DNA of 64,000 nt from an uncultured archaeon (GTDB taxonomy: Archaea; Aenigmatarchaeota; Aenigmatarchaeia; CG10238-14; SCSR01), in assembly GCA_964570195.1 (NCBI GenBank), contig CAZMWU010000001.1, forward strand, positions 7,433 to 71,432, in the 5' to 3' direction. The position numbers and the translations under genes are program-made. Positions within the stretch are counted from its first letter, which is position 1. Each line of letters starts with the position of its first letter. Shown here one piece after another: positions 12,717 to 62,141 of this stretch. The notes below the pieces were generated by a model that saw only the letters and a list, made by a program, of their open reading frames with translations, did not search any database and was not told where the DNA came from.

Positions 12717-12805
12717 AACATATTTAACAGACTCTTTTAAATTAATAGATATTTCTTAAACTTGTAGAAACGACAAAATATAAAGCATTTAACTGTTTCA
12801 TATAA

Positions 12806-13957: not shown

Positions 13958-13961
13958 AATT

Positions 13962-15593: not shown

Positions 15594-15657
15594 CTAGATC
15601 CCATGAGAATAGTATGAAAATAGATATAAATTAGTCTTCTATATTAATCTAACCAAA

Positions 15658-16593: not shown

Positions 16594-16599
16594 CATACA

Positions 16600-17295
16600 T
16601 TAATTTAATATATCCTTCTTTGACATCACGAACACATGGAATGCAGTTTTACAATACAGAAAATTTCTTAAGAATGTATTTGAAGAATACCCTTCTTGCC
16701 GTTTTCTCCATAAACCATCAACCTCTTTTATACTACACCCTAACCTTATTGGTTTTAGAATAGTTTCTAATAAGAATGGATGTTTTAATTCTTCCCAATT
16801 TATCTTTTTTATTAAACTGCTTCTAAATATTCTATATCCGTATGTCAAATCTGTTAGATTTATTTTATACATCTTTTGCAACATGATTTGAAAAATCTTA
16901 TTCAGTAACAATTTAAATATCCCATATCCTTTAAAACTATTTTTTCTGCGCCATCTACTTACAGTAACAATATCGTAGTCTTTTATGTATTTTATCATTT
17001 TTGGTAAAATTTTTGGGTCAGTTTCCAAATCACTAGCCATTAATACAGTATATTTTTGTGAACTCTTTTCAAAGCCGTTCCTTATCGCACCACCAAGAAA
17101 TGGTAGAGTCTGTGCAATAATCTTTATTTTGCTATTTACAGCAAGTTCATTAGAAATTATTTTACTTTCCTTAGTCGTTTTTTCTTTATCTATTATTATA
17201 AGTATTTCTTTGATTTCTTTGATTTTAAGTAAATAGTCAACAGTTTTAATTAGAGAATTAGTTTCATTGATAACTGGTAATAATACTGATAGCAT
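16600..17295 (-). CDS. GT2-family glycosyltransferase (dolichyl-phosphate sugar synthase-like).
   Basis: N-terminal SVLLPVINE and MASDLETDP (DxD-like) motifs; 231 aa. Confidence 0.7.
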   Translation of the reverse strand: MLSVLLPVINETNSLIKTVDYLLKIKEIKEILIIIDKEKTTKESKIISNELAVNSKIKIIAQTLPFLGGAIRNGFEKSSQKYTVLMASDLETDPKILPKMIKYIKDYDIVTVSRWRRKNSFKGYGIFKLLLNKIFQIMLQKMYKINLTDLTYGYRIFRSSLIKKINWEELKHPFLLETILKPIRLGCSIKEVDGLWRKRQEGYSSNTFLRNFLYCKTAFHVFVMSKKDILN

Positions 17296-17302
17296 TTCAA
17301 TC

Positions 17303-18355: not shown

Positions 18356-18446
18356 CGTTCACTATCAAGACCTTATTTATTTAACTTTATAAATTTATTT
18401 TAATACTTTCTTAAGACAGATTTGATAATGTTTTTAATATAGCATT

Positions 18447-19985
18447 GTGAGTAATTTGGTAAATAACAAGCATCCGATAAGAACAAAGCTAATTTCCAAT
18501 ACAATTTTTATCGCTCTTGAATGGATTTTTACAACTGTCTTTTCATTCCTTTACTGGTTTATAATTGGAAAGTCACTATTTCCAGATGATTTAGGTAAAA
18601 TTACCATTTTTATTAATTTAACAGTAATGATTTCGGCGTTTTTACCACTAGGTACAGGATACGCTCTTAATAAACTTATACCAGAATACATCGGACGAAA
18701 TCAATTAGGTAAGATAACATCTGCTATTAGGTTTACGTTAAAATTAATTATGATTACCACTTTAATCACAGCAGCTATTATAATAGCATCATCCAACGTA
18801 ATTTCGAATATTTTAAAAATACCACAATTTTTGGTTTTTCTATTACCTATAAGTTTATTTTTCTATGCTATTTTCAACCACCAGTCAAATATAATGCTAG
18901 GATTTCAAGATACTAAAAAATTAGCTATAACATCTACGATTGGAATTATGTTAAAAGTTTTAATTACTACCGTTTTGATTTTTTTCAACATTAAATTTTT
19001 AGGTCCAATAATAGGTTTTATAGTATCTTCTTTCTTTATGTTTTTAACTCGAATTAATTACCTATTTTATAATAAAAACCCCATCAGAATTAACGGCAAA
19101 AATATTTTAATAACTTTTGGACTATCTGCACTTTCATTGAAAATAGCTTTTCTTTTACTAAATAGTAGTCCAGCATTAATTTTAGCTTTGTTTCATAGTC
19201 CAGAGGTAGTTGGTATATTTGGTGTAGCAATGTTACTATCAAGTCAACTTAGTATAATACCATTAATATTTTCTTCTGCGTTGTTTCCAATAACATCATT
19301 GCTCTCTATAAAGAGAAACAACAAAAAACAACAAACATATCTTATAAATCTAATACTTAGATATTCACTTCTTGTTTCAATACCAATTCTCACTTTTATT
19401 ATACTATTCTCTGGAAAATTGATTGTATTTATTTCTCAAGTTTCGTATTTACCTGGTAAACCATTAATTCCAATTTTGGCTTTTGGTTCTTTGTTACTCG
19501 GCACATCTTTTATATTTATAAGAAGTCTCTATGCCATAGGTAAGCCCGAAATCCAGCAAAATTTGATGATATTCACATCGCTCGTCTATATAATTCTTTC
19601 CTTCCCTTTAACTTATTTATTTTCTGCTTTAGGGATTTCAATCGCTTATTTCATCTCTTCCTTAATTTTATTTGGTGCAGGTTTTATCTATCTACGAAAG
19701 ATTCTAAGATTTAGCATACCTTTTAAAAATACAATAAAACTTATTTTCGCCAACATTATTTCGTTAGGTGTTTTATTCATTTTATCAAAATTTGCACCAA
19801 ACATTACTATTGGATTCCTTTACACGATTCTAACTGGTGTATTTTATTTATTTCTATTATTATTTCTTCGATTTTATACTAAAGATGACATAATTTTGGC
19901 GAGAGGTTTGATTAAATATATCCCTTTCGGGAAAAAAGTAATAACAAATATCATAAATTCACTTTCTAAATTTATTGAGAAATAG
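18447..19985 (+). CDS. Wzx-like oligosaccharide flippase (MOP superfamily). GTG start.
   Basis: 512 aa with about 12-14 TM helices; position between a GT gene and the AglH-like gene. Confidence 0.6.
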   Translation: MSNLVNNKHPIRTKLISNTIFIALEWIFTTVFSFLYWFIIGKSLFPDDLGKITIFINLTVMISAFLPLGTGYALNKLIPEYIGRNQLGKITSAIRFTLKLIMITTLITAAIIIASSNVISNILKIPQFLVFLLPISLFFYAIFNHQSNIMLGFQDTKKLAITSTIGIMLKVLITTVLIFFNIKFLGPIIGFIVSSFFMFLTRINYLFYNKNPIRINGKNILITFGLSALSLKIAFLLLNSSPALILALFHSPEVVGIFGVAMLLSSQLSIIPLIFSSALFPITSLLSIKRNNKKQQTYLINLILRYSLLVSIPILTFIILFSGKLIVFISQVSYLPGKPLIPILAFGSLLLGTSFIFIRSLYAIGKPEIQQNLMIFTSLVYIILSFPLTYLFSALGISIAYFISSLILFGAGFIYLRKILRFSIPFKNTIKLIFANIISLGVLFILSKFAPNITIGFLYTILTGVFYLFLLLFLRFYTKDDIILARGLIKYIPFGKKVITNIINSLSKFIEK

Positions 19986-19988
19986 TTC

Positions 19989-21005
19989 TCATATGAAATG
20001 AAAATAAATAAGATAAAACCCGATGAGTGATACAACTATTTGCATTAAAATCAGAGTTAATGTGATTTGTTTCTCAGTCAACGTCTTTATGTTCATGATT
20101 AAATGTGTTATACTGTAGATTTTTTTACCATATGGTGCATAAAGTTTTCCATCCGATTTTAATAACCCTAAACTACTAGCTTTAAATTTGGATTTCATTT
20201 TTAAGAGAAATTCTACGATGAAAGGCGTAATTAGAATGATACCAAGTTTTTCCATATTACCCGCGATTACTCCACCAGCAACTAACGCCCCAAGAAGATA
20301 AGTTAATGAGTCACCTGGCAAGATTTTTGCTGGATACCAGTTGTATATTATAAACCCAATCAAAGATACAGCAGCAACTAAAAATAGAATAGCTATATTA
20401 CTTTGATTTAAAAAGGCAAAAATGCCAAGTGTCAGCATGTAAACTATTCCCATACCAGATTCCGATCCATTAAATCCCCCCAACATATTGATAGCATTGC
20501 TTGCGCCGATAAACCCAATAGGTATCAACAACAAGGGGTACAATATACCGAAATCAATGATTCCAAAAAATGGCAAATTTACTGTTGAATCACCTACGCT
20601 AATTACCATTAACGGTATGGCTGCAGGTAAAGTGAGCAGTGGTTTAAGCCATTGAGGAAGTCCAACACGAATATCTCTTTTTTTCGATTCGTATCGTATT
20701 ACATTCAAATCATCAAGCAGACCAATTAATGTGACTATCAGAACAGACGACATTATTGCAAATAAATACAAAATAGCGTTTGATATTCCCACCAAAAAAG
20801 TTGTTAAGCCGATGTAAGTTAAAAGACCTCCTAAAATACCAGAAGATACAGCTAACCCCCCAGAAGATGGTAATATTGGTTTATTTTTTTTATGTTGATC
20901 TATACCTACTACACCAGTTCTACGTAAAAATTTAATTAGGAATGGAATAGCAAAGAAGGTTGTAAAAAAGGAAACGATTAAAGAACTTAAAACAATTAAA
21001 TCCAT
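19989..21005 (-). CDS. UDP-HexNAc:dolichyl-phosphate HexNAc-1-phosphate transferase (MraY/WecA/AglH family).
   Basis: Polytopic protein with IGLLDDLNV (DDxxD) and NAINMLGGFNG motifs. Confidence 0.75.
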   Translation of the reverse strand: MDLIVLSSLIVSFFTTFFAIPFLIKFLRRTGVVGIDQHKKNKPILPSSGGLAVSSGILGGLLTYIGLTTFLVGISNAILYLFAIMSSVLIVTLIGLLDDLNVIRYESKKRDIRVGLPQWLKPLLTLPAAIPLMVISVGDSTVNLPFFGIIDFGILYPLLLIPIGFIGASNAINMLGGFNGSESGMGIVYMLTLGIFAFLNQSNIAILFLVAAVSLIGFIIYNWYPAKILPGDSLTYLLGALVAGGVIAGNMEKLGIILITPFIVEFLLKMKSKFKASSLGLLKSDGKLYAPYGKKIYSITHLIMNIKTLTEKQITLTLILMQIVVSLIGFYLIYFHFI

Positions 21006-47246: not shown

Positions 47247-47817
47247 ATTAACAGCATTCTCATTGGTTTGGTTATTGTTCTTTTTCATACCTCTGTTTTT
47301 AAGCATCTATGATAACAGAATGTTTTTCCTACCAATAGTATTTCTTATGTCTGAAGTATGGAGGGTATGGACTCATTTCATTGGTGGTGAATGGGTACCA
47401 ACACCGCAAAGGATTGTTGACAAAATGTTGAAAATAGCTAAAGTCAATAAGAACGATACTGTTTATGATTTGGGTTCGGGTGATGGTAAAATCGTTTTAG
47501 CTGCAGCGAAGGTCGGTTCAAAAAGCATAGGCGTGGAAATAGATCCTATAAGAGTTTTGATCAGCAGAATTAAAATAAAATTATCTAGGTTAGACAAACT
47601 GACAGAGGTTGTTCGAAAAAATATATTCGAGACTAATATAAAAGATGCCGATGTTATTACATTGTTTTTGTTACCCAAAACTATGGAAAAACTAGAGAAC
47701 AAGTTAAGAAAAGAACTAAGAAAAGGAGCGAGAGTAGTTTCTTACAGATTTGTTTTTAAGAATTGGAAACCTGTGAAGATAGATGGAGAAAATAAGATTT
47801 ACCTGTACAAAGTTTAA
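47239..47817 (+). CDS. Small SAM-dependent methyltransferase with an N-terminal TM anchor.
   Basis: VYDLGSGDGKIVLAAAKVG motif I; N-terminal hydrophobic helices. Confidence 0.55.
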   Translation: MVRLTAFSLVWLLFFFIPLFLSIYDNRMFFLPIVFLMSEVWRVWTHFIGGEWVPTPQRIVDKMLKIAKVNKNDTVYDLGSGDGKIVLAAAKVGSKSIGVEIDPIRVLISRIKIKLSRLDKLTEVVRKNIFETNIKDADVITLFLLPKTMEKLENKLRKELRKGARVVSYRFVFKNWKPVKIDGENKIYLYKV

Positions 47818-48416
47818 GCTCTAGCGGTAGCTAAAGCTGATCTGTAGTTCTGTGCTCCTCTTAAAAATGAGTCAATCATACCAGCTAAATTCCTGACGAT
47901 GTATGAAGGATTAATTAGAGATTTTTCTCCATGGTCGCTAGCCATTTGCTTTGCACCAGCTCTATAAAGTCCATATCCGTCTTTAGTCTTTCCCTGAATT
48001 CTTTCAGTGTAAAATGATGCTACACCCTCTACTACCGGCTTTAACAATACCAAACCTAGTATCCCATATCTTTCTAAACCTCTTGAATATGCTTTTATGC
48101 TACCAGTCTGGTTTTGCACATCATGAACTACCTCATGCACACCAGCTTCTTCTCCGAATTCAGGATCACTTTCTAAAGTACTAGCATTTAGAGTGAGTAC
48201 TTGATCGTCAGGGGAATACATACCGCCTATATGAGGATCCAACCTTTCAATAGAATACTTTCTGACGCTAGGTCTCCTGCCAAAATAACTTCTCACTTTT
48301 CTGATTCCGCTGGCCAAATAATTGAGACCCCTGCTAACAATATTTGGGTTGATACCTCTGTAATCTATTGGTGCATCCAATTCTTCTTCCATGCTTCTTA
48401 TACCTTCGTCGCTCAT
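47814..48416 (-). CDS. Hypothetical protein with an HExxH motif (possible zincin-like metallopeptidase).
   Basis: HEVVHDV motif; Arg/Gly-rich composition. Confidence 0.3.
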   Translation of the reverse strand: MSDEGIRSMEEELDAPIDYRGINPNIVSRGLNYLASGIRKVRSYFGRRPSVRKYSIERLDPHIGGMYSPDDQVLTLNASTLESDPEFGEEAGVHEVVHDVQNQTGSIKAYSRGLERYGILGLVLLKPVVEGVASFYTERIQGKTKDGYGLYRAGAKQMASDHGEKSLINPSYIVRNLAGMIDSFLRGAQNYRSALATARA

Positions 48417-48491: not shown

Positions 48492-49109
48492 TTACGGTTT
48501 TCTACCAAACAAGAAAACTATCAAAGCAAGCCCCGTCACCAGAAAAATTATCGACAATGTAGTTATGTCCAAACCACCAATCGAGCTAAATAGTTGAGTA
48601 GGTGCTATCTTTAATCCTGGAAATATCGCAGTCCCACCACTTGATATGAAGACACCAACAACTATCAATGCAACGAAAGCCAGAAGCAACCACAATACGT
48701 TGCCCTTAAAAATGTCGTTCCACATATCTGGAAGAATTCCCCCTATCATAGATACAAGAACTATCAAGACAATAAAAGTCAGAATTACTGCTACAGCTCC
48801 TCCAAAAAACTGGGCTAAAAATTGACTGAACGTTATGCCGGCAGGAGTGTAAACCATGATAAATCCAGCAGCCGTCAAAGCTACCACAACAGCAATTCCC
48901 CTTTGTTCACCAAATAATTTTGTTCTAGTCAACAGTCCAAAGAAAACAGCGAAAACTATAATAAAAGGAAGATAAAATTCAAAAACACCAATCTCCTTAA
49001 GTGTGCTTACCACATCTTGAAACCCTTGAGATAATGCAACTGAAGAAAATATCAAAACACTAAAAACAAAACCCAAACCAACTTTAGAAATATCGGCTCT
49101 CATTTTCAA
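48492..49109 (-). CDS. Paralogous polytopic membrane protein, family member 1 of 4.
   Basis: Shared N-terminal motif with its neighbours: EIG[VF]FEFYLPFIIVF...LLTRTKLFGE. Confidence 0.5.
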   Translation of the reverse strand: MKMRADISKVGLGFVFSVLIFSSVALSQGFQDVVSTLKEIGVFEFYLPFIIVFAVFFGLLTRTKLFGEQRGIAVVVALTAAGFIMVYTPAGITFSQFLAQFFGGAVAVILTFIVLIVLVSMIGGILPDMWNDIFKGNVLWLLLAFVALIVVGVFISSGGTAIFPGLKIAPTQLFSSIGGLDITTLSIIFLVTGLALIVFLFGRKP

Positions 49110-49144
49110 CTAACTCATATTTATTTTCCAAAGATTTAAACATG

Positions 49145-49684
49145 TCACTTGGCCGCTCGGACTATCACAGCTATAATTCCCACCAACGCTATCAACGCCA
49201 CCACAGACAATACCAGGTCTGATGAAAAGCTTATTCCTATTCCTTTCGGAAACAAAACTGTAGCAAGCCCACTAGAAACCAAAATCACACCCCCCACAAT
49301 CAGTGCGACAACAATAACTCCCCCCCAGAAAACCGGTGCTTTCATCCTATCACCCAAATTTTTGGCCAAATCTGGCGGGAAGAACATCCCAGCTAAAACC
49401 AATGCTATCAATACAATCAAAGATACGCTGAATCCTTGGACGAAGAATGCCGATAGCTTCGTCTCTATGTCAATCCCTAGAATTATCGGCGCAGCCCATA
49501 CGAACAAGCTGATGACAAAAGCAACAATAGCATTAACAGCGACATTCTTTTCAGGTTCCCCAAACAATTGCGCTCTTCTCAAGCCGCCATAGATTATCGC
49601 TGCCGTCAGAATGAACGGCAATAAGAAATTGAAAAATCCCAGTCCCTGCAGTTTCAATATTGCTATTTCAAAAACTGTAGGCAT
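49145..49684 (-). CDS. Paralogous polytopic membrane protein, family member 2 of 4.
   Basis: LGFFNFLLPFILTAAIIYGGLRRAQLFGE motif. Confidence 0.5.
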   Translation of the reverse strand: MPTVFEIAILKLQGLGFFNFLLPFILTAAIIYGGLRRAQLFGEPEKNVAVNAIVAFVISLFVWAAPIILGIDIETKLSAFFVQGFSVSLIVLIALVLAGMFFPPDLAKNLGDRMKAPVFWGGVIVVALIVGGVILVSSGLATVLFPKGIGISFSSDLVLSVVALIALVGIIAVIVRAAK

Positions 49685-50235
49685 TACTTGACCTCCTTAC
49701 CCATAGACATCGAGACAATCAATAATATGATAAGTATTACAAAAATAGCAACTGTTACTGTCATCAGTTCGGCAGGTACTTTAATTGCTTTGAGCAGACT
49801 TTTGAAAGGATTTCCGATAATTGAGAATAGTCCGGCAGACACAGCAAAAGCTATAGTAGCCCATACAATCCATGCAGCCGGTCCGCCGCCTTTAAAAACA
49901 TCAGGCAATTTTTCAATTATGTTCGGGTAGAAGAAACTAGCTATAAGGAATGCTACCAAAACAACCACTAAAACTATGGCGCCCTGCGTTAAAAATGCTG
50001 TCAGTGCAGGTACTATGCTTGTTCCCAAGATTACCGGTACACCGAAAACAAACATCCCGGCAACAACAGAAATGATCCCATGAATTACAACCGATTCACC
50101 AAGGACCTTTGTTTTCCTCAACACTGCATAAAGTACTGTCGTGAACAATATGAAAGGCAGTAAGAAATTATAGAATCCTATCTCAACTAGCCTCTCAACG
50201 GCAACCTGAAAGATGTTAACCATTCTATCTTTCAA
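49684..50235 (-). CDS. Paralogous polytopic membrane protein, family member 3 of 4.
   Basis: IGFYNFLLPFILFTTVLYAVLRKTKVLGE motif. Confidence 0.5.
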   Translation of the reverse strand: MKDRMVNIFQVAVERLVEIGFYNFLLPFILFTTVLYAVLRKTKVLGESVVIHGIISVVAGMFVFGVPVILGTSIVPALTAFLTQGAIVLVVVLVAFLIASFFYPNIIEKLPDVFKGGGPAAWIVWATIAFAVSAGLFSIIGNPFKSLLKAIKVPAELMTVTVAIFVILIILLIVSMSMGKEVK

Positions 50236-50268
50236 TAATTTGTTTTAGTAAAAATTTAAACATGGTAG

Positions 50269-50778
50269 TTACCTTTTGTACTTAACCCTCAAATAATCTT
50301 CGAGTTGTTTAATTTCATCATCTTTCTGTTTAAGCTGTTTAAGCAAGTCCATTTTTTTTCCTGTGCTTACAAAGACACCGCCAGAATAGTATTTCTTTAG
50401 CAACTTTGCTCTTTCTTCTGTTAAAGATTTTAATTTCTGTTCGTTACCCTGCAAACTTTTAGCTATGTTTGCACCTTTTCCGATTAATGCCCAAAAGAAC
50501 AGGACTGTAATTCCGCCCAAGGAGATAACAGTCCCAGCAACTCCTATCTGAAACAAATAAGATGCAAGGAACTGAAAAATACCACCAGGGTTTATAGCAT
50601 AAATCATTACCGTAAGTCCAAGTGAAACCAGAACGTAAACAAAAGGATTGTCACCTAAAACTTTCGTTTTTTTGATTGCAAACAGGAGCACAGTAAAAAT
50701 TATCAGAAAAGGAATCACGAAAGTTATCAACATGTTCGTTAAATTCGGTGAAAGAAGATTCTCTATGGGAAAAGCCAT
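50269..50778 (-). CDS. Paralogous membrane protein, family member 4 of 4, with a C-terminal coiled-coil tail.
   Basis: ITFVIPFLIIFTVLLFAIKKTKVLGD motif; K/E/L-rich C-terminal heptads. Confidence 0.45.
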   Translation of the reverse strand: MAFPIENLLSPNLTNMLITFVIPFLIIFTVLLFAIKKTKVLGDNPFVYVLVSLGLTVMIYAINPGGIFQFLASYLFQIGVAGTVISLGGITVLFFWALIGKGANIAKSLQGNEQKLKSLTEERAKLLKKYYSGGVFVSTGKKMDLLKQLKQKDDEIKQLEDYLRVKYKR

Positions 50779-50809: not shown

Positions 50810-51553
50810 TTAAGCGTCTCTCTTCAGTCTCTGCACCAAGTCAGTCAATGCTCTGACAGATTCTATCAATGCCGGTAACGTCTCCTTGAAAGCTTTCTCC
50901 AGGCCGCCAATTCTCGTATCGATATCACCAACACCTTCTTTGAAAATCTCTATCTTGCTTAAAATCTGCGTCTGTTCAGCATTCCTCAAATTCATTATTT
51001 CGCTTATCCTGTCGCCAACTTCCTCAATTCTTCTTTCAATCTCCTGGGCCTTGACAGAGAATTCTGTCATCTTCTGGTTTATCTCACCCATTCTCGCCTG
51101 CACAACATAGTCGACATATTCCTCAGTAGGATAATTCTGTTGGCTACCCTGGTAATATTCTTGAGGCAATGAGGTTTCTGGTAGCTGTGGTGTTTGTTGC
51201 TGTTGCTTTGGTATGATTTCCTCCAATGTAGGCAAAGCAGACTCGCTTCTAGGAGGTTCTGTCGGCATTCCTTCTGTCGGGCTGGTTGCAGCGAACTTCA
51301 AAGCTTGCGTCAATCCATTATCAATCTCTTCAGGCGAGTAGCCTTCTTTCCTCAGAACATCAATTACTTCCACTTCAGAAAAACCTCTCCCAGTCAGATC
51401 CCTCACCCTTTCAACGGGTATAGAGCCTTTTCCTTTAGCCAAAGGATTCTTCAAAAAGGGTAAAGCCATTATTCCACTATAATTAATTCCCTTTTTAATT
51501 AATATAATCCCAAGCTTTGTATACAAACATGAAGACAAGACTGGTAATCGCAA
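50810..51553 (-). CDS. Hypothetical protein with a small N-terminal helical domain, a Pro/Gln-rich linker and a C-terminal coiled coil. The likely start is the internal ATG giving MALPFLK.
   Basis: Low-complexity QQQTPQLPE linker followed by heptad-like E/R/I repeats. Confidence 0.35.
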   Translation of the reverse strand: MRLPVLSSCLYTKLGIILIKKGINYSGIMALPFLKNPLAKGKGSIPVERVRDLTGRGFSEVEVIDVLRKEGYSPEEIDNGLTQALKFAATSPTEGMPTEPPRSESALPTLEEIIPKQQQQTPQLPETSLPQEYYQGSQQNYPTEEYVDYVVQARMGEINQKMTEFSVKAQEIERRIEEVGDRISEIMNLRNAEQTQILSKIEIFKEGVGDIDTRIGGLEKAFKETLPALIESVRALTDLVQRLKRDA

Positions 51554-51939
51554 TAATTTTGTTTTTTGCTATTGTAGCGTCTTATTACTTGTCGCCGAGG
51601 CTAAGCGGCAATTCAAGTGCAGTTGATGAAAATAGAATTGTGGAAGTGGAAATGGCCATAACACACGGTGGCTATATGCCTAATAATATAACAGTAAACC
51701 TAGGAGATAAGGTCAGAATTTTAGCAATAACAACCGACCCTTCACATAGCCATGGAATAACTATCAATGAATTAAAAATTAATAAAGTAGTTTCGAAAAC
51801 ATCACCCTCTGACCCTGAAATAATAGAATTCATTGCAGGTAAATCGGGAATATTTGAAATCTATTGCAAAAGCTGTTCTGACGGTCCAATTGGTTCCCAT
51901 CCATGGTTGAAAGGTACATTGGAAATTTTATCTGATTAA
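51517..51939 (+). CDS. Small membrane-anchored or secreted cupredoxin-like beta-sandwich protein.
   Basis: N-terminal TM helix or signal; NITVNLGDKVRI...H.H...C..C....H pattern typical of the cupredoxin fold; the metal site is non-canonical. Confidence 0.35.
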   Translation: MYTNMKTRLVIAIILFFAIVASYYLSPRLSGNSSAVDENRIVEVEMAITHGGYMPNNITVNLGDKVRILAITTDPSHSHGITINELKINKVVSKTSPSDPEIIEFIAGKSGIFEIYCKSCSDGPIGSHPWLKGTLEILSD

Positions 51940-52364
51940 GTCTTTTTGTTCTTTGGGGTTCTGTAATCAAACATCTTTTCTACTTCGTCTCTTGTTACAA
52001 ACTTGGCAGTAATAGGATTTATCAAGTCTATGAAAGTCTCTATTTGTTTCAATTCCCTTTTCGTCGCAGTCTTGGACAATTCTTTGCTCAATCTTAAAAT
52101 CTCGCCTTCTATGCTCAAGAGCTTCTCCGACACAGACACAATTTTATTGTTTATTTTTTCGAGCGACAGCTTCAGGTCATTTAATTGGGTTAGCGTATTT
52201 TCTTGCAGGGACTCCAATGAACTTTCCAATCTGTCAATTCTCTGCTCTATAATTCTGATTCTTCTTGTATCTTCGTTTATTCTTTTGACGAGCTCTGTTG
52301 TTACTTTTGTAACATCTTCTTCATGCCTCTCGAAAGGCAATGTTGGTAGGGATGGTAAGGCCAT
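51936..52364 (-). CDS. Hypothetical coiled-coil protein (142 aa).
   Basis: Continuous heptad-like pattern; divergent from the pilus ATPase gene. Confidence 0.35.
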   Translation of the reverse strand: MALPSLPTLPFERHEEDVTKVTTELVKRINEDTRRIRIIEQRIDRLESSLESLQENTLTQLNDLKLSLEKINNKIVSVSEKLLSIEGEILRLSKELSKTATKRELKQIETFIDLINPITAKFVTRDEVEKMFDYRTPKNKKT

Positions 52365-52409: not shown

Positions 52410-54650
52410 TTGTTGGCTGTTGAATACGAAGTTGTCGATGGGGCTCTGAGGATAAATTGCATCAACTGGGCGATTGCCCCAAGCATAGAAGATTCCGATG
52501 CGACTATGGCAATTGTGATTGACACGCTGTTGCGAGCAAGGGATGCTGACAGGGTTGTTCTGATAGAAACTCGCGAGAACGAGTATGATGCAGAACAGAC
52601 AAAAATGCTACGCGAGATAGCAGATGCTTACAATCGGATTCTGAATATCGACAAGACAATAAGTCTGCAAAACTTTGGTCCATCACAATGCGAAAAACTT
52701 TTTCCGAAAAGATTAGCAGATTTGCAATTTTTGGTTTTAGAAATCCTGCGAAAGGATCCTATCGGCGCTTATTTGCGGACAGTTAAGATGGTAAACGCAA
52801 ACAAAGTCTTGGAAGGGACTGCTCCGTTAGAACAAAAAATTTGTTTCACACATTATTTGGACAATGCATTAATTCCAATCAAAAATATTCTTGAGGGATG
52901 CACGCTGATTCAGAAGGCTTTGCCTATTTTGCAAAATTACCAGATTGGTAGCAGGGACGTATATCGCGAAATATTTTCACCAACTGTCAGGCCCAACTTC
53001 ATGTTGACAAGATTTATGCTGGCAATTCCAAAGGGGGCGAGGATGGTTGGCAAATATTCTCTTGTTGGTGCTGAAGTCGAGATATACAAACTGCCAACAA
53101 AAGTGCGACATCTGTATCATATAACCCCGAAAGAATTTATTCTAAGTGACGAAAAATACACAATATTGGATTCTGCTAGGAGATATTTGGCTGCGCACAG
53201 ACCAACAGAAGCCGAAGCAGTCGAACCAGAAAAATCAAGGGAACTTTTTAAAAATTTGGGAAGAGATTTGGTAAGAGACGTATCAAGAAGCATGAATGTG
53301 AATTTGACCGCAGCTGAAATAGAGGAACTGGCAATAATATTGTCGAGATATACTGCAGGTTATGGTATTTTAGAGCTTTTACTATCCGACGAAAAAATTC
53401 AGGATATTTTTGTCAACGCTCCCATCGGTACAACTCCTATTTACATAAATCATTCAGATTTCGAAGAATGTGAAACAAATTTAATGCCTACGAGTGAAGA
53501 CGCAGAATCATGGGCAACAAGATTTAGATTGTATTCAGGCAGACCACTTGACGAATCTAACCCAGTTTTGGACACAGAGTTATTGGTTCCTGGTGGAAGG
53601 GCGAGAGTTGCAGCCATAACAAAAAGCCTGTCACCAGAAGGCCTTGCATTTGCATTCAGAAGACATAGAGAAAAACCATGGACTTTCCCCCTGTTCATTA
53701 AAAATAGAATGTTTGATTCTCTTTATGCAGGGTTGATGAGTTTCATTATAGATGGTGGCAGAGCTCTACTTGTTGCGGGTGGAAGAGGATCCGGAAAAAC
53801 TTCTGTTCTGAATGCCCTAATGCTAGAAATAATGCCCAAATTCAGAATCATCACAACCGAGGATACACTTGAAATTGCTGTTCCGGAAATGCGAAAGCTT
53901 GGCTTCAACATTGAAAGGATGAAATCACGTTCTGTAATTACGAAAGTAGAAACAGAGTTGCCGGCAGACGAAGCGTTAAGAACCGCATTGAGATTGGGCG
54001 ATTCCGTTTTGATTATAGGCGAGGTACGTTCTGTAGAGTCACTTGCTTTATTTGAAGCCATGAGAATTGGTGCGATGGCTAATGTAGTTGCAGGTACGAT
54101 ACATGGTGAATCTGCATACGGTGTTTATGACAGGGTTGTTCACGACCTTGGTGTCCCACCGACGAGCTTCAAAGCTTTGGATTTAATCACAATTTGTAAT
54201 CAATTAAAATCTCCAGATGGTTTGCACAAATTCAGGCGTGTAACGGAATTGACCGAAGTCAGGAAACAATGGAAAAATGATCCTTTGGATGAAGGAGGTT
54301 TTGTCAATTTAATGGAGTATTCTGCAAAGGAAGACAAGCTCAAGCCTACTGACACTTTGATTGACGGCGAGTCGCAGGTGTTGAATGAAATCGCTAGAAG
54401 AGTTAGGGAGTGGCGTGGCCAATGGGACGCCGTCTGGGACAACATTCTGTTAAGAACGAAGATAAAGGAGACAATGGTTAATTTTGCAGCCAACTTGGGC
54501 AAGGACAATATTCTTGAGGCAGAACATGTTGTTGAATCAAATGCCATGTTCCATCTTATTTCAGAGCAGGTTCGCCAAGAGGTTGGTGCACTGGATTCGA
54601 AGATGATATACGACAAATGGTTGGAGTGGTTTAAGAAAAGAATTGGTTAA
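52410..54650 (+). CDS. Type IV pilus/archaellum-type secretion ATPase (PilB/GspE/FlaI/TadA/VirB11 superfamily) with a long N-terminal extension. TTG start.
   Basis: Walker A VAGGRGSGKTSVLNAL; TTEDTLEIA; Walker B-like LIIGEVRSVE; His-box GTIHGES. Confidence 0.8.
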   Translation: MLAVEYEVVDGALRINCINWAIAPSIEDSDATMAIVIDTLLRARDADRVVLIETRENEYDAEQTKMLREIADAYNRILNIDKTISLQNFGPSQCEKLFPKRLADLQFLVLEILRKDPIGAYLRTVKMVNANKVLEGTAPLEQKICFTHYLDNALIPIKNILEGCTLIQKALPILQNYQIGSRDVYREIFSPTVRPNFMLTRFMLAIPKGARMVGKYSLVGAEVEIYKLPTKVRHLYHITPKEFILSDEKYTILDSARRYLAAHRPTEAEAVEPEKSRELFKNLGRDLVRDVSRSMNVNLTAAEIEELAIILSRYTAGYGILELLLSDEKIQDIFVNAPIGTTPIYINHSDFEECETNLMPTSEDAESWATRFRLYSGRPLDESNPVLDTELLVPGGRARVAAITKSLSPEGLAFAFRRHREKPWTFPLFIKNRMFDSLYAGLMSFIIDGGRALLVAGGRGSGKTSVLNALMLEIMPKFRIITTEDTLEIAVPEMRKLGFNIERMKSRSVITKVETELPADEALRTALRLGDSVLIIGEVRSVESLALFEAMRIGAMANVVAGTIHGESAYGVYDRVVHDLGVPPTSFKALDLITICNQLKSPDGLHKFRRVTELTEVRKQWKNDPLDEGGFVNLMEYSAKEDKLKPTDTLIDGESQVLNEIARRVREWRGQWDAVWDNILLRTKIKETMVNFAANLGKDNILEAEHVVESNAMFHLISEQVRQEVGALDSKMIYDKWLEWFKKRIG

Positions 54651-54668: not shown

Positions 54669-55034
54669 ATGATGAAAGGCGTAGCTATACCATATGTGAT
54701 AGCATTAATTCTTGGTGTGGTTGTGATTGGAATCCTAGGCTACTGGTTTGTTTCATATGGTGGCAGTGCGATTGGAACTGGTACACAGGCTGAATGTGAT
54801 GCATCGGATTTTAATTATTGTAAAGGATTTGTAAAAACATGGGACACAAAATGTGGAGAGCCAAATTGTGGTGAAATTAGCCCAGCAAAATGTGGCAACA
54901 CTATAAAAGAAGAAGAGGAACAGTGTGATCCACCTGGTTCTACTGAAATTAAAGATATCAAAGGTGTAGGTAAATGTACCTATAATTGTGGTGACAATTG
55001 TAAAGTTGTTAGTATATCTTGCAAGCCACCATAG
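54669..55034 (+). CDS. Pilin-like protein with a class-III signal peptide and a Cys-rich C-terminal domain (paralog 1).
   Basis: MMKG|VAIPYVIALILGVVVIG fits the [KR][GA]|hydrophobic consensus; 12 Cys in the C-terminal 75 aa. Confidence 0.55.
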   Translation: MMKGVAIPYVIALILGVVVIGILGYWFVSYGGSAIGTGTQAECDASDFNYCKGFVKTWDTKCGEPNCGEISPAKCGNTIKEEEEQCDPPGSTEIKDIKGVGKCTYNCGDNCKVVSISCKPP

Positions 55035-55065
55035 CGATTATCTTTATAAAAGCTAAATATAAATT

Positions 55066-55344
55066 ATGAAAGCAGTTGCCATACCTTATGTCATCGCACT
55101 TATTCTAGGAATAATGGTTGTTGGCATTCTTGCATACTGGCTTATTAATCAAGCTGGTAAAACAACAGCCCAAGGAGCTAGTGCAGAATGCCAAGGAAAG
55201 ATATTTTCATACTGCTTAGCATGGGATGCCCAAGGGAAGAAGTGTAGCGATGGCCAACCATCTTCTTTTGATTGGGGAAATAAATGTACTAAACCCAGTG
55301 ATTTCAAGATAGATAATTGTAAGTCCCTAGGCATTTGTACTTGA
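55066..55344 (+). CDS. Pilin-like protein with a class-III signal peptide and a Cys-rich domain (paralog 2).
   Basis: MKA|VAIPYVIALILGIMVVG N-terminus; 6 Cys. Confidence 0.55.
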   Translation: MKAVAIPYVIALILGIMVVGILAYWLINQAGKTTAQGASAECQGKIFSYCLAWDAQGKKCSDGQPSSFDWGNKCTKPSDFKIDNCKSLGICT

Positions 55345-55395
55345 GCATTTGAAGATATTTCATAAATCTTTAGTTATAGAAATCAAATAATAATT

Positions 55396-55707
55396 ATGAG
55401 AAAAGCAGTTGCCATACCTTATGTCATAGCCCTGATTATCGGAGTCGTGGTAGTCGCAGTTCTAGCTTACTGGTTTATTTCTTCTGCAGGTAAAGGTAGC
55501 AGCATCGGGACAGAGGCAGAGTGCACAGCAAGAAAGGTCGAATACTGTACCACACAAGTTACTGACGTTTGGAATAAATTTAAACAAGTCTGCGGCAATG
55601 ACGAATGGTCAAAAGCCGGATCATGCTACAATTTTTGCTCAAGCATAGTTCCGAGTTGGAAATCTACAAATAGTCAAGGTGGATCCTGTGCCCAATCCAC
55701 TCCTTAA
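55396..55707 (+). CDS. Pilin-like protein with a class-III signal peptide and a Cys-rich domain (paralog 3).
   Basis: MRKA|VAIPYVIALIIGVVVVA N-terminus; 7 Cys. The 20 nt up to and including the start codon, gaaatcaaataataattatg, are identical to those of paralog 1. Confidence 0.55.
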   Translation: MRKAVAIPYVIALIIGVVVVAVLAYWFISSAGKGSSIGTEAECTARKVEYCTTQVTDVWNKFKQVCGNDEWSKAGSCYNFCSSIVPSWKSTNSQGGSCAQSTP

Positions 55708-55773: not shown

Positions 55774-57738
55774 ATGCCAATAATTTCCCGCGAGTATGAG
55801 AAATTCCTTAGAGAGGAACAGTTAGCCAAGAAACTCACTTTCTACGAAAGATCATGCCGGTTATCAGAAAAAATTCTACCACTGTCACCACCATTTAAAG
55901 GTCTCAAAGAAAAATATAAAGAATCAATTGAATTCTCACACCTCAAGATAACACCAAAAGGTGCATTTTCCCTCTCGCTTATAACAACATTGTTAATTTT
56001 CATCGTTTCTCTAATAGCATTAGTAATATTGAATTCGTTCACTTCCTCTTCACTTATCCTCTCATCTATCCTGTCTTTAATAACATTTTACTTTTTTGTT
56101 GTCTATCCCAATCACCACGCAACTGTATTCAGAATCAATGCATCATCAGAAATGGTACTTGCAACAATCTACATGAGCATCTCAATGCATATATCACCTA
56201 ATTTGGAAAATGCGATTAAATTTGCTTCAAATAATTTGAAGGGGTCACTGTCAGTAGATTTGCGTGAATTATTGTGGGATGTGTACACTAGGAAATATGA
56301 TAAAATTGAGGATGCTTTAGATTCCTTTATTGTAAAATGGAAAAAAGACAATAAAGAGTTCGCAGAGTCGTTGTATCTTATTAAAAATTCCGGTGCAGAA
56401 TCTCAAGAAAAACGAGAAAGATTTTTGGATGAAGCAGTCTCTGTTATGTTAGATGGCACTAAAGAAAGAATGCGATTATACTCGCGCCAGCTAAAAGAAC
56501 CGGTCACAATTTTAAACGCCCTAGGGATTCTCTTGCCTATAATAGGCTTGGTTTTCTTTCCAATAATCAGTCTATTCTTGCCGGAATTAATCCAGCCTAT
56601 TTTTCTTGTAGTGGGTTATGATTTCTTTCTTCCTCTAATAGTCTTCCTTTTCATGAATAGTTATCTGGAAAAAAGACCCTACAGTTTACATCAGCCAGAT
56701 TTGAGTAAACATCCCGATTTTTCTACTGTCAAATTTTATGAAAAACCATATACTATACCACTGTTAGTTTCCTTGCCGTTGATTGCAATAGGCTTGGTTA
56801 ATATAATAGGAAAAAAGGACCTTTTTAGTTTCGGTCTACTTGTATACTCGATGTTAATCACATTAGGTTTGTTTATCGGGATTGCTACTTATTCTGCACT
56901 GTCTGTCAAAAGGAAGCTGAAAATAAGAAAAGAAATTGCAAGCATAGAAAGCGAATTCGCTGAGACATTATTTCAGTTGGGTAGCATGATACTGCGAGGA
57001 ACACCATTAGAAACAGCTTTAAGAAGAGTTAAAGAAGACATTAAGAATCTGAAAATTGCGCAATTCTTCGATAAAATATTATACAATATAGAAACATTTG
57101 GTTTGACATTCGAAAATGCTGTCTTCGACAAGACATACGGCGCAATAAATTATTATCCGTCTAATATAGTCGAATCTGCGATGCATGTAATAGTCGAGAC
57201 TTCAAAAAAAGGAATGCAAAGCGCATCCAAATCAATGATAATCATCTCCAAATACCTGAAAGATATGCATGAGGTAGAAGAAGATTTAAAAAATATGTTG
57301 GAAGAAGTGACATCAACAATGAATATACAGAGTATTCTCCTTGCTCCTTTGAGTGCAGGCGTTGTAGTCACTATTGCTGTTATAATGACGAGGCTTTTAG
57401 TTAATCTGGGGGAGACTTTAACTTCCGTTTATTCAGAGGTAGGTTCGGCTCTAGGCCCTGCTGGTGATATAGGTACAGGAGTCATATCGTCAATAGTCAA
57501 TTTAAGTGCGATCATACCAATTCACGGTTTTCAATTAATTGTTGGCGTATATATTGTTGAGATTGTGACCATTATCGCGATTACACTGAGCACAATTACA
57601 AACGGTGACGAGGGTTTAATGAAAAGGTTGACGATATCAAAACATCTCACTTACAGTTGTATCGTGTATTTCATAACTTTGTTATCCACATACTTTTTAT
57701 TCACCTCGGTTATTTCAATAGAGAAGTTAATAATCTGA
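55774..57738 (+). CDS. FlaJ/TadC/PilC-like polytopic platform protein of a type IV pilus-like system.
   Basis: 654 aa; two blocks of TM helices separated by cytoplasmic helical domains; located between the ATPase and the pilin-like genes. Confidence 0.55.
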   Translation: MPIISREYEKFLREEQLAKKLTFYERSCRLSEKILPLSPPFKGLKEKYKESIEFSHLKITPKGAFSLSLITTLLIFIVSLIALVILNSFTSSSLILSSILSLITFYFFVVYPNHHATVFRINASSEMVLATIYMSISMHISPNLENAIKFASNNLKGSLSVDLRELLWDVYTRKYDKIEDALDSFIVKWKKDNKEFAESLYLIKNSGAESQEKRERFLDEAVSVMLDGTKERMRLYSRQLKEPVTILNALGILLPIIGLVFFPIISLFLPELIQPIFLVVGYDFFLPLIVFLFMNSYLEKRPYSLHQPDLSKHPDFSTVKFYEKPYTIPLLVSLPLIAIGLVNIIGKKDLFSFGLLVYSMLITLGLFIGIATYSALSVKRKLKIRKEIASIESEFAETLFQLGSMILRGTPLETALRRVKEDIKNLKIAQFFDKILYNIETFGLTFENAVFDKTYGAINYYPSNIVESAMHVIVETSKKGMQSASKSMIIISKYLKDMHEVEEDLKNMLEEVTSTMNIQSILLAPLSAGVVVTIAVIMTRLLVNLGETLTSVYSEVGSALGPAGDIGTGVISSIVNLSAIIPIHGFQLIVGVYIVEIVTIIAITLSTITNGDEGLMKRLTISKHLTYSCIVYFITLLSTYFLFTSVISIEKLII

Positions 57739-57754: not shown

Positions 57755-57868
57755 ATGAGGAAAGCTGTTATTTCTGTTTCTTTATGGTTTATTGTCACGC
57801 TGATCATGGTTTTAATTATTATAATGGCGGCTTTTACCATAGTGCAGAAAGGAATGTTGGTTAAATGA
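57755..57868 (+). CDS. Unannotated 37-aa micro-ORF encoding a pilin-like single-TM peptide (MRKAVISVSLWFIVTLIMVLIIIMAAFTIVQKGMLVK). It is below the length cutoff of the ORF track.
   Basis: The N-terminus MRKA|V matches the neighbouring class-III signal paralogs; ATGA overlap with the next gene. Confidence 0.3.
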   Translation: MRKAVISVSLWFIVTLIMVLIIIMAAFTIVQKGMLVK

Positions 57869-58224
57869 GAAAAGCAATCGGAATGGCATTGCAAATTTTA
57901 ATCGGGGTTATATTCATGATACTTGGTCTGATTGTTGTCTGGTCTTTTACTGAAAAGGTATCCGGATTTTCCCTTGGACTTCTTCTAGGCACAACAGCTA
58001 AAAATGCTTACTGTGGAATAGCAGGTAGTCCTGTCAAAGGAGGTATTTCGGGAGGTGCACTCGGTTTGGCTGTAGGCGGAGGTATATGTGCGGCAGGGGT
58101 GGTAGGTGCTTTCTTTACAGGGGGAATATCTCTCTCTGCTTGTGTCTTAGGTGCTAAAATAGGAGCTGGGATTGCTGTTGGGGCTGGGATAGCGGGTGCC
58201 GCATACTCGGCAACTGCATGCTAG
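57865..58224 (+). CDS. Small Gly-zipper membrane protein with a class-III-like N-terminus.
   Basis: MRKA|IGMALQILIGVIFMILG followed by GxxxG/AxxxG repeats (GGISGGALGLAVGGGICAAGVVGAFF). Confidence 0.4.
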   Translation: MRKAIGMALQILIGVIFMILGLIVVWSFTEKVSGFSLGLLLGTTAKNAYCGIAGSPVKGGISGGALGLAVGGGICAAGVVGAFFTGGISLSACVLGAKIGAGIAVGAGIAGAAYSATAC

Positions 58225-58264: not shown

Positions 58265-59248
58265 ATGTCCAAAGCCATGGCTATTGAAGGTGTGGGAAAG
58301 ATTTTCATTATGATAGCTGTTCTTGTTGTCGGTATTGCCTTTCTGGTGAAAGCTCTAGGGATTGACCCTTTCGGATGGCTAGAAAAGAAGTTTGAGGGCA
58401 TCGATGTGCCAGAAACAGGCAAGGCCTTGCATGTTAGAATGGATGTGGATGCAAAACTTAAAGATGTATTTTCGTTCCATTTATTATCCGATAACGAAAT
58501 GCGGAAACACCATACAGATGAAGAGGGTAGTAGCTCTTATTATAGCCTATATTTTCAAATCGAATCAGATAAAGTAAAAAATCCGCTTGTCCTTGGAAAT
58601 TGTGTATTGTTAGTAACCGAGGAAGAAAAATCATCTTTTGGTATTGCTGGTGGAGCCGACAAATCTTATGTCTACTACATCAAATCCGGCACAATGATTC
58701 AAGATGATGACAAGCCCTGCCAATTTTTGGGACAATGCCTCTCTGACAAAAACTGGGATTATAAAAAATTAGTCGACAAGGGATATGGCTGTATTTCTGA
58801 TCAGGTGAGAGACGAAAATCCCAGTTGCGATAAATGTAAAAAAGCTGCAGCTCCATCTTACGATTGTATAGGTCCCTTTAGTGTTGTTAACTGTGCCGGT
58901 CAGGTTCTTCCAGGTCCCTTTGGTGATTGGCAAAAGAGTCCACCATGTGACAGCGATCACACGGTGATAAAAAATTTCGAATTCTCTGACGATATATTAA
59001 TATCCGATAGATGTGCAGAAGATGATCCAAGTGAATGCAATTTGCTAAATTATAGAGAAGTCGAAGGAAAAAGCATATTTGAAAGTAAAAGATTTATTGG
59101 CAGCAAAGTTAAATATGGCATCATCTGTGGCAATGACGGGTACTGGCATACCTGTAAACAAAACATCGAAGGAGAAGTTCCAACCCCAGATGGCACATAT
59201 ACATGTGACAGCAAGTTAGGTGGTGCAGTTTTCTATTGGAAAAAATAA
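58265..59248 (+). CDS. Secreted or membrane-anchored Cys-rich protein (327 aa) with a class-III-like N-terminus.
   Basis: MSKA|MAIEGVGKIFIMIAVLVVGIAF; about 20 Cys, including CDKCKK and CxxxC-type pairs. Confidence 0.45.
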   Translation: MSKAMAIEGVGKIFIMIAVLVVGIAFLVKALGIDPFGWLEKKFEGIDVPETGKALHVRMDVDAKLKDVFSFHLLSDNEMRKHHTDEEGSSSYYSLYFQIESDKVKNPLVLGNCVLLVTEEEKSSFGIAGGADKSYVYYIKSGTMIQDDDKPCQFLGQCLSDKNWDYKKLVDKGYGCISDQVRDENPSCDKCKKAAAPSYDCIGPFSVVNCAGQVLPGPFGDWQKSPPCDSDHTVIKNFEFSDDILISDRCAEDDPSECNLLNYREVEGKSIFESKRFIGSKVKYGIICGNDGYWHTCKQNIEGEVPTPDGTYTCDSKLGGAVFYWKK

Positions 59249-61102: not shown

Positions 61103-61426
61103 GTGAAATTAATGAAAGCTGTCGCGGTTCCTTATATCATAGCTATTCTTCTTGGTGTTGGTGTCATCGGGTTAGTAGGTTATTGGTTATTTGTTTCCGG
61201 AGGTCAGTTCGGCGGCGGAGCCGCATCTCAACAATGCAGGACAGATTTTCTACAAACCTGCCAGAGCTGGGCGGCTGGTGGATATTTAGCAGATAACCCT
61301 GCTGATAATGGTGTTTTTAAGCACGCAGATGATAATGTTTGCATGAAGCAAGTGACAGGTAAAACCGACATGGACGATGCCACTAAAGCCATATACAGGT
61401 CTTCCTGTACAGTGGCTGGTGCTTAA
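61103..61426 (+). CDS. Pilin-like protein with a class-III signal peptide and a Cys-containing domain (paralog 4).
   Basis: MKLMKA|VAVPYIIAILLGVGVIG N-terminus. Confidence 0.5.
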   Translation: MKLMKAVAVPYIIAILLGVGVIGLVGYWLFVSGGQFGGGAASQQCRTDFLQTCQSWAAGGYLADNPADNGVFKHADDNVCMKQVTGKTDMDDATKAIYRSSCTVAGA

Positions 61427-61451
61427 TTTCTATATTTTCTAAATCTATTAT

Positions 61452-61742
61452 ATGTCCAAAGCCGTTGCAACGCAAGCTGTTTTCCTGGTGGGCGTCATCG
61501 CCATTCTATTTTTCTTCATAACCGCTATTTTCTTCGGCTGGATTAAAGGAACTAAAATAGTTACCACTCAAGCTACATGTGTAGTGAAGCAAAGGAGCTA
61601 TTGCAGTGAATGGTCTGTAGCAGGAAAGGAGCCTGACTGGTGGGGAGAAAGGGAGCCTAAGAATTGTGAGAGCGCGGACTTTCAAATAACCAAACCTAGT
61701 TGTAACGACTGTAAGAAGATATACTCTGCTATGAGATGCTAA
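61452..61742 (+). CDS. Pilin-like protein with a class-III signal peptide and a Cys-rich domain (paralog 5).
   Basis: MSKA|VATQAVFLVGVIAILFFF N-terminus; 7 Cys. Confidence 0.5.
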   Translation: MSKAVATQAVFLVGVIAILFFFITAIFFGWIKGTKIVTTQATCVVKQRSYCSEWSVAGKEPDWWGEREPKNCESADFQITKPSCNDCKKIYSAMRC

Positions 61743-61769: not shown

Positions 61770-62141
61770 ATGTTGAAAGGCTCCGCCGCCACAAACGCCC
61801 TTACCATTGTAGGTGTGGGACTTGTGAGCGTAATAATGTTTGCCCAAGTCCCTGACATGGTAAAAGATATAAGATTGGTTTTGTCGAAAGATTCTGTCAT
61901 AGCAAAATCGGCAGAGATAGCAGATTTGTTAACTCGCACAGCATCAGTGCCAGGGGACATCAAAATTACCCATAAACTATCCGATGAAGTTTCTTACACC
62001 ATTTCGATTAAAAACGGTTATGTAAATATCAGCACTGAAAACGATTGGGCGGTGTCAAAGACATTTTCGAATGTGGAATTCGAGTCAGAAAATGTAAAGT
62101 CACTCCTGATAACAAAAACTAGTATCATAAAGGTTGAATGA
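61770..62141 (+). CDS. Pilin-like protein (class-III-like N-terminus, no Cys-rich domain).
   Basis: MLKG|SAATNALTIVGVGLVSVIMF N-terminus. Confidence 0.4.
   Translation: MLKGSAATNALTIVGVGLVSVIMFAQVPDMVKDIRLVLSKDSVIAKSAEIADLLTRTASVPGDIKITHKLSDEVSYTISIKNGYVNISTENDWAVSKTFSNVEFESENVKSLLITKTSIIKVE

Follow-up and report, generated by a model that had tools for sequence, protein, structure and literature searches.

A 64,000-nucleotide stretch of DNA (hereafter the window) from an uncultured archaeon of the Aenigmatarchaeota (GenBank assembly GCA_964570195.1, contig CAZMWU010000001.1, positions 7,433 to 71,432 of the forward strand) carries an array of four related membrane protein genes, P1 to P4, in the same locus as genes for two coiled-coil proteins, a secretion ATPase, a platform-like protein and several pilin-like proteins. 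The four proteins belong to a large, unnamed and previously unannotated membrane protein family of DPANN archaea, which recurs across phyla in a seven-component module with the coiled-coil, ATPase and platform-like proteins. A preliminary description of the window, made from the sequence alone, had reported four consecutive minus-strand genes encoding proteins of 169-205 amino acids, and open reading frames (ORFs) were called at exactly these positions: P4 (50269..50778; 169 amino acids), P3 (49684..50235; an ORF of 183 amino acids), P2 (49145..49684; 179 amino acids) and, as the last gene of the array, P1 (48492..49109; 205 amino acids), which matches the hidden Markov model (HMM) of the family. 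The gaps between consecutive genes measure only 35, -1 and 33 nucleotides, the stop codon of P3 overlapping the start codon of P2 by 1 nucleotide, and because of this tight spacing the array looks like one operon. The true start of P3 is probably the ATG at 50223, which would give a protein of 179 amino acids; a database sequence of this length (P0001; ncbi, contig 72015; 179 amino acids) is identical to the P3 ORF from MVNIFQ onward.

The array had been described as lying immediately upstream of a pilus locus. It does belong to the same locus, but two coiled-coil genes and a cupredoxin gene intervene, and transcription is divergent from the ATPase. The order is CC-B, the plus-strand cupredoxin gene, CC-A, P4, P3, P2 and P1, with the ATPase, pilin-like and TadC-like genes running the opposite way. 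CC-A ("CC247"; 50810..51469, minus strand), whose ORF runs to 51553 with a probable start at M29 (MALPFL...), begins with a UBA-like three-helix domain, which a Pro/Gln-rich linker connects to a conserved coiled-coil domain at the C-terminus (68 homologs aligned). It is presumed to be cytoplasmic, since no signal peptide or hydrophobic segment is evident, and together with its 68 homologs it yields just weak UBA_3, Raf1_HTH and generic coiled-coil matches in Pfam. CC-B ("CC142"; 51936..52364, minus strand, 142 amino acids), the coiled-coil gene transcribed divergently from the ATPase, encodes a conserved C-terminal motif of the Y-x-D-x-W-x-P-x-x-F-V-T-R type, and its 52 aligned homologs gave generic coiled-coil or UBA-like noise only against Pfam. 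Paralogy of CC-A and CC-B is not claimed, as their hhalign match is colinear but insignificant (probability 9%).

The secretion ATPase of the locus (52410..54650, plus strand, 746 amino acids; Pfam T2SSE, 6e-17) is FlaI/TadA-like, with NCBIfam scores of 132 bits for FlaI (cut-off 550) and 123 bits for TadA, both far under the cut-offs, and it carries a conserved N-terminal extension of about 290 amino acids that is subtype-specific in an alignment of this domain. The polytopic TadC/FlaJ-like platform protein (55774..57738, plus strand, 654 amino acids) has a weak whole-profile match to T2SSF (E 0.003), which is also the sole recurrent family among 37 homologs (4/37, best 1e-4); the TadC-like gene stands directly after the ATPase gene, an arrangement that is conserved. 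Three small Cys-rich genes on the plus strand (54669-55034, 55066-55344 and 55396-55707), whose products begin with M(R/M)K(G/A)VAIPYVIALI..., probably encode pilins, judging by their class-III-signal-like N-termini, and the pilin-like small proteins of the window have no Pfam match.

P1 to P4 are genuine paralogs, and their similarity lies far beyond chance. The other three proteins are 29-36% identical to P1 in a MAFFT alignment, pairwise blastp comparisons gave E-values of 1.3e-22 (P3/P2), 6e-10 (P2/P1), 3e-7 (P3/P1) and 6e-4 (P4/P1), and a profile of the four proteins retrieves 117 database homologs with E-values down to 1e-58. An exhaustive profile search covering 1.84 billion representatives found 2,966 clusters (50% identity) at E<=1e-3 and 1,664 at E<=1e-10, with a typical member length of 165-220 amino acids. 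Named members are annotated as "hypothetical protein" and come from Aenigmarchaeota/Aenigmatarchaeota, Woesearchaeota and Pacearchaeota, the named Aenigmatarchaeota orthologs being 80-90% identical to the window proteins; a second homolog search with a diverse alignment returned further Aenigmatarchaeota sequences only and added neither taxa nor annotations. When GTDB species representatives were scanned with the motif as seed, at least 529 loci were confirmed, the best 80 of which derive from metagenome-assembled genomes of the Woesearchaeota, Nanoarchaeota or Nanobdellota type (below: Woese-type loci). Many module-bearing contigs (L012, L016, L017, L019 and others) are titled "uncultured Methanosarcinales archaeon" and one (L087) "Alphaproteobacteria bacterium", which are probably placeholder or mis-binned taxonomic labels.

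The preliminary description had not recognised the family, and rightly so: no curated family or solved structure matches it in profile and structure searches. P1 to P4 have no near-threshold match in Pfam, NCBIfam, PADLOC or PHROGs, a Pfam gathering threshold is passed by none of 84 diverse family members, and a Foldseek comparison with the PDB gave no match (best E 3.9). When the family profile was compared with PDB sequences, all E-values exceeded 0.1; six of the seven best matches (E 0.1-0.8; profile positions 77-136) fell on the two-helix hairpin of cytochrome c oxidase subunit II. Being non-significant, this similarity is treated as noise, and the occurrence of a cupredoxin in the same locus is probably a coincidence. 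For DUF2070 (PF09843), a predicted archaeal membrane protein, 13 of the 84 members reach E<=0.01 (best 1.5e-4), while the window proteins themselves give no match to it. The three matches inspected score 13-15 bits, below the gathering threshold of 30 bits, and align in a constant register, protein residues ~19-172 corresponding to positions ~42-174 of the 561-residue profile, i.e., to its N-terminal quarter. This recurrent register could reflect remote homology of the family's membrane core; as DUF2070 has no known function, membership would explain nothing. A literature search of open-access papers and bioRxiv found no description of the family.

The N-terminal signature noted in the preliminary description is real and represents the best-conserved region among about 200 diverse family members. 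An amphipathic helix is followed by a near-invariant Gly, by the first membrane helix with an L-P-F motif, and by K-[ST]-K-x-[FL]-G-[ED]; invariant or near-invariant positions are G16, L22, P23, F24, L35 and G42. P4 deviates from this pattern (LTNMLITFVIPFLIIF...KKTKVLGD), lacking EIG and keeping only the PF and the KTK-LG part. The claim of five to six transmembrane (TM) helices in each protein holds in part. A core of five helices is present in P1, P2 (where it follows the amphipathic N-terminal helix) and P3, as well as in 74-75 of 76 relatives in each position class of the three-copy arrays described below (hydropathy), but P4 has three. P1 contains six hydrophobic segments, the first of which is followed by ALSQG, and its orthologs keep A-Q-G at this point; this segment looks like a cleavable Sec signal peptide, so that the core of P1 is likewise counted as five TM helices.

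Within the 5-TM core, loops 1 and 3 and the C-terminal tail are rich in Lys and Arg, whereas few of these residues occur at the N-terminus or in loops 2 and 4. Given this positive-inside pattern and the putative signal peptide of P1, the core is predicted to be oriented with its N-terminus outside and its C-terminus inside, and the basic tail of P4 to be cytoplasmic. This 70-residue Lys/Arg-rich tail, which follows the three hydrophobic helices of P4, had been described as a coiled coil. It is helical, but comprises two short helices (~21 and ~30 residues) joined by a Gly-rich loop (33 orthologs aligned), i.e., a hairpin. AlphaFold2 placed helices at residues 11-38, 45-62, 67-109, 112-132 and 139-168 of P4, with a predicted template modelling score (pTM) of 0.34. 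The model of P2, calculated from the 117-sequence alignment, is all-helical, with a mean predicted local distance difference test score (pLDDT) of 78.9, a pTM of 0.50 and pLDDT values above 88 for residues 1-60.

The association of the family with the secretion machinery is conserved far beyond the window. The module consists of two to four tandem family copies, CC-A, CC-B, the FlaI/TadA-like ATPase (~750 amino acids) and the TadC-like protein (~650-750 amino acids), and it occurs in Aenigmatarchaeota, Woesearchaeota, Pacearchaeota and Nanoarchaeota-type genomes. Its flanks differ: genes for a TP_methylase (diphthine-synthase-like) and a TYW2-type methyltransferase border it in Aenigmatarchaeota, the former neighbour being shared by the window, PRC-barrel and transposase genes in Pacearchaeota, translin and AspRS genes in Woesearchaeota, and Fic and TatD genes in another lineage. 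Across these distant lineages, and whatever the flanks, the family keeps the genes for the secretion ATPase and the TadC-like protein as neighbours; by this operational measure of conserved linkage it counts as an accessory component of an archaeal type IV filament system. The coiled-coil genes lie upstream of the array and on the same strand in the window, but downstream and convergent in most Woese-type loci; such variation of gene order and orientation between lineages argues against simple inherited synteny.

To quantify the linkage, ORFs were called in all fetched loci and searched with the family HMM and with the ATPase, the TadC-like protein, CC-A and CC-B of the window. The family-seeded set comprised the best 80 of at least 529 species-representative loci, 75 of which contain exactly three tandem copies and five of which contain two. 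Where the sequence continues for 6 kb or more after the array (56 loci), an ATPase gene lies within 8 kb of it in 39 cases. Of 65 loci with room, 55 have the start of a CC-A homolog no more than 3.5 kb past the array, and in two further loci the homolog overlaps the end of the array by a few bases (57/65 in total). In the reverse test, a metagenome scan was seeded on the subtype-specific N-terminal domain of the ATPase, and among the 27 loci whose upstream sequence extends for 6 kb or more, 21 contain the family, CC-B and CC-A standing beside the ATPase nearly always. Where modules are split, CC-A remains with the membrane array and CC-B with the ATPase; since CC-A adjoins the ATPase even in loci that lack the array, it links both sub-modules. 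The neighbourhood analysis proposed in the preliminary description, which asked whether the family travels with the ATPase or with the coiled-coil and cupredoxin genes, can therefore be answered for several DPANN lineages: it travels with the ATPase and especially with the two coiled-coil genes. The membrane-anchored cupredoxin (51517-51939, plus strand, between CC-A and CC-B; Cupredoxin_1, 5e-8, also resembling the C-terminal domain of NosZ) was rejected as a part of the module, being present among the fetched loci only in the window and in a close relative (L003).

The copies within an array are not interchangeable. In three-copy arrays, each copy finds its best match in other species at the corresponding position (76/76 for each of the three positions), in a comparison based on other-species sequences less than 45% identical. 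It follows that the triplication is old and that no subunit is redundant, which is what one would expect of a hetero-oligomer whose composition is fixed, and the term "tandem amplification" used in the preliminary description is misleading: these are old, position-specific paralogs, not recent amplifications. The four Aenigmatarchaeota paralogs have no one-to-one mapping onto the three Woese-type position classes. The third paralog of Woese-type arrays (e.g., L006, 10630-11301) lacks the LPF motif and carries an acidic, Thr/Asn-rich extracellular loop of ~75 residues before its last helix, followed by a conserved T-L-F-H-P-K-V-L-G; this long loop could be a surface-exposed part of the complex. 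In one sequence from the representative search (P0127, 365 amino acids), a position-1-like and a position-2-like member are joined by a Ser/Thr/Gln/Asn-rich linker. The fusion was rejected as evidence for subunit contact, because a cytoplasmic linker after a first copy with five TM helices would invert the second copy, and it is more likely a read-through or an assembly artefact.

The reading that we favour, with a probability of roughly 55%, is that P1 to P4 form a hetero-oligomeric membrane complex which serves as the anchor or scaffold of a divergent, DPANN-specific type IV filament machine and is tethered to it by the coiled-coil proteins. The paralogs would assemble in the cytoplasmic membrane, each subunit contributing a short amphipathic helix on the outer face, the conserved first TM helix with its LPF motif, a basic cytoplasmic loop and a cytoplasmic C-terminus. 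The cytoplasmic hairpin of P4, together with CC-A and CC-B, might tether this complex to the ATPase by way of the latter's long N-terminal domain, the ATPase sitting beneath the TadC-like platform. As a fixed membrane anchor or scaffold, the complex could position or brace the motor of ATPase and platform, and the braced motor would assemble the pilins encoded downstream. We regard the finding as a new accessory module that belongs to a familiar type of machine, and the biochemical role proposed here for the module is a putative one. A more specific version of the proposal, in which the paralogs, CC-A and CC-B form a stator- or anchor-ring around the long-N-domain FlaI-like ATPase, within a DPANN-wide class of filament machines distinct from archaella and known pili, is considered doubtful. 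If it were true, the machine could drive rotation or retraction of the filament, or it could form the membrane base of a host-attachment apparatus; both ideas rest on the near-universal presence of the machine in these host-dependent archaea.

Several observations weigh against the anchor or scaffold reading. The coupling in cis is not obligatory, since array and ATPase are more than 8-10 kb apart in about 25-30% of the loci with room, and even with relaxed thresholds no array was found within 10 kb in 6 of the 27 ATPase-seeded loci. The Woese-type loci are not independent observations, because many of them share the translin/AspRS synteny (translin in 46 and AspRS in 43 of 80), and many of them have no pilin genes nearby. 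Searches with Pfam, NCBIfam and hhalign detected no homology between the family and accessory proteins known from pili or archaella. The pTM values of the AlphaFold2 monomers are low for both P2 and P4, which precludes inference at the level of the fold, and the TM and signal-peptide calls derive from hydropathy, charge counts and the positive-inside rule rather than from dedicated predictors. The data establish the paralogy, the topology pattern, the size of the family, its lack of a match among known families and the gene linkage across phyla, whereas the assembly of the paralogs, the bridge formed by CC-A and CC-B, all physical contacts and the anchoring role are inferred.

Some of these observations would be accommodated by an independent complex of the array and CC-A, acting in membrane remodelling, division, envelope maintenance or host contact, which is merely co-located and perhaps co-regulated with the pilus genes. 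The tightest association is indeed that of the array with CC-A; the array, usually accompanied by CC-A, occurs without a nearby ATPase in 17 of the 56 family-seeded loci with room, the array-less loci of the ATPase-seeded set point in the same direction, and the UBA-like domain of CC-A is atypical of pilus components. However, CC-B, the ATPase and TadC are found next to the array in one phylum after another, even where order, orientation and flanks have changed, and the persistence of CC-A beside the ATPase in array-less loci joins the two sub-modules. An independent complex is regarded as possible but unlikely.

An ion-conducting stator or channel in the manner of MotA/ExbB/TolQ, or a small transporter, which would energise or feed the machine, appears improbable. 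Polytopic, multi-copy membrane subunits of fixed composition adjoining a motor ATPase would suit such a role, as would the strikingly conserved Pro-containing motif in the first helix. Stators of the MotA/ExbB type depend on a conserved residue, polar or charged, within the membrane-spanning part of the complex, whereas the predicted membrane helices of all three position classes are devoid of conserved acidic or basic residues. Neither a MotA_ExbB match in Pfam nor a significant match to MotA/ExbB/TolQ or a transporter family was found, and the "unrelated transporter-like family" that the preliminary description had offered as an alternative finds no support.

Proteins with class III signal peptides have a short basic leader, a [KR]-[GA] site, a single N-terminal hydrophobic helix and an extracellular globular domain. 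Atypical pilin-like substrates, or membrane chaperones or insertases that hold prepilins, are the least probable identity of the paralogs: a review of 2019 labels the dark-matter proteins encoded in DPANN pilus islands, in general terms, as probable "diverse pilins" (PMC6393860), the near-invariant Gly before a hydrophobic helix superficially recalls a prepilin cleavage site and many Woese-type loci have no recognisable pilin genes, but a type IV pilin or archaellin is rejected by five membrane helices with a cytoplasmic C-terminus, which are incompatible with extraction into a filament, by the Sec-type signal peptide that seems to precede the motif in P1 and would place the N-terminus outside, opposite to class III signal peptides, by the hydrophobic residue, not Lys or Arg, at position -2 before the Gly (which P4 lacks), and by the separate, typical pilin-like genes in the window.

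Two further components of type IV machines were considered for the paralogs and rejected. Prepilin peptidases of the A24 type (PibD/FlaK/EppA) are polytopic proteins that use a pair of catalytic Asp residues, of which the second belongs to a GxGD-type motif; the family has no invariant Asp and no Pfam match to them. The T2SSF domain of TadC/FlaJ platforms consists of a cytoplasmic helical bundle and three TM helices; the family has no T2SSF match, and hhalign comparison with the TadC-like proteins of the loci gave a probability of 0.5%.

The anchor or scaffold proposed here has functional counterparts in known systems. In the archaellum, ArlX (Thermoproteota) and ArlC/D/E (Euryarchaeota) are accessory proteins encoded beside the genes of a FlaI-type ATPase and a FlaJ-type platform, and these cytoplasmic coiled-coil partners are thought to ring the motor. 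ArlX is anchored in the membrane and has a coiled coil in the cytoplasm, a resemblance that is limited to P4, and it has one TM helix, as opposed to three to five in the family. No sequence similarity to these proteins was detected; the family members give no match, and the only trace is a weak FlaC_arch match in CC-A (E 0.008-0.011; 17 bits against a cut-off of 27.8; 3 of 68 homologs), and no homologs of ArlF, ArlG or ArlH turned up among the locus proteins scanned. In bacterial type IV pili and type II secretion systems, the small membrane proteins PilM/N/O and GspL/M, whose genes accompany those of the ATPase and the platform, link the cytoplasmic ATPase to the envelope and align the machine. 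They are bitopic and have periplasmic ferredoxin-like domains, whereas the present family is polytopic and has almost no soluble domain, and no homology between them was detected. At most, the family may therefore work like ArlX/ArlCDE and PilMNO/GspLM; it is a member of none of these groups.

A structural analogy is offered by Get1/WRB, a 3-TM receptor whose cytoplasmic helical hairpin docks the soluble Get3 ATPase. The model of the P4 tail superposes on this hairpin with a target-normalised TM-score of ~0.8 and a root mean square deviation of 1.7 A over ~58 residues. The likeness may be no closer than analogy, as the Foldseek E-value is 0.39 or higher, antiparallel hairpins of this kind are generic, the hairpin is placed differently with respect to the TM helices and the sequences are unrelated. 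A precedent by description is found in halobacterial type IV pilus loci of clade 4F, in which an intracellular coiled-coil protein (arCOG07564) is encoded with a secretion ATPase and TadC (Makarova, Koonin, Albers, 2016; PMC4858521). Its likeness to CC-A and CC-B lies in this description only, i.e., a coiled coil encoded with ATPase and TadC. The clade-4F ATPase also occurs in nanoarchaea, where no cognate pilins were identified, and this census of archaeal type IV pili did not cover DPANN and described no polytopic membrane family in 4F loci (PMC4858521).

Uncharacterised proteins in DPANN pilus islands have been loosely assumed to be pilins, a view that the analysis of this family corrects. 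DPANN archaea represent a large share of archaeal diversity, and the parts of their surface machines are still mostly annotated as "hypothetical proteins"; to our knowledge, every member in culture needs to be in physical contact with a host. A family of about 3,000 clusters (50% identity) in a seven-component module gives annotation pipelines a handle on thousands of genes and offers a candidate, open to testing, for the part that anchors a DPANN-specific filament machine in the membrane. Should the role as anchor or stator be borne out, the module would represent a solution for bracing a PilB/FlaI-type motor that is independent of ArlX/ArlCDE and PilMNO.

Some further features of the module loci and of the window may be recorded. 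A P-loop protein of ~453 amino acids (GKRGGGKSYT; HerA/DUF87-like by eye) is encoded between CC-A and CC-B in 10 loci (L028, L034, L037, L073 and about six further Woese-type loci). Several ATPase orthologs are much longer than that of the window, with 1176-1258 amino acids in L100, L122-L124, L137 and L141 and 963 amino acids in L046; the ~430-510 extra residues of the long orthologs suggest an intein or another insertion, and an intein-containing helicase is present in L004. Pilin-like genes of the window extend beyond the three named above: at least five small Cys-rich proteins (54669-55707 and 61103-61742) share near-identical N-termini of the type M-K/R-x-V-A-I/V-P-Y-V/I-I-A-L/I-I/L-L/I-G, and further ORFs with a short basic leader and one hydrophobic helix encode, among others, a Gly/Ala-rich protein of 119 amino acids and a Cys-rich protein of 327 amino acids (additional pilin-like ORFs at 57865-58224, 58265-59248 and 61770-62141). 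The cupredoxin has a Cys/His pattern of C-x2-C-x8-H, unlike a canonical CuA site. Directly downstream of the array, on the minus strand, lies an ORF of 200 amino acids with an HExxH motif (HEVVH; 47814-48416) and no family match, which was rejected as a module part because its only homolog in the fetched loci occupies the same position in L003 (3e-23). Finally, the G+C content of window positions 10001-20000 is 0.27-0.30, compared with 0.32-0.42 elsewhere in the window.

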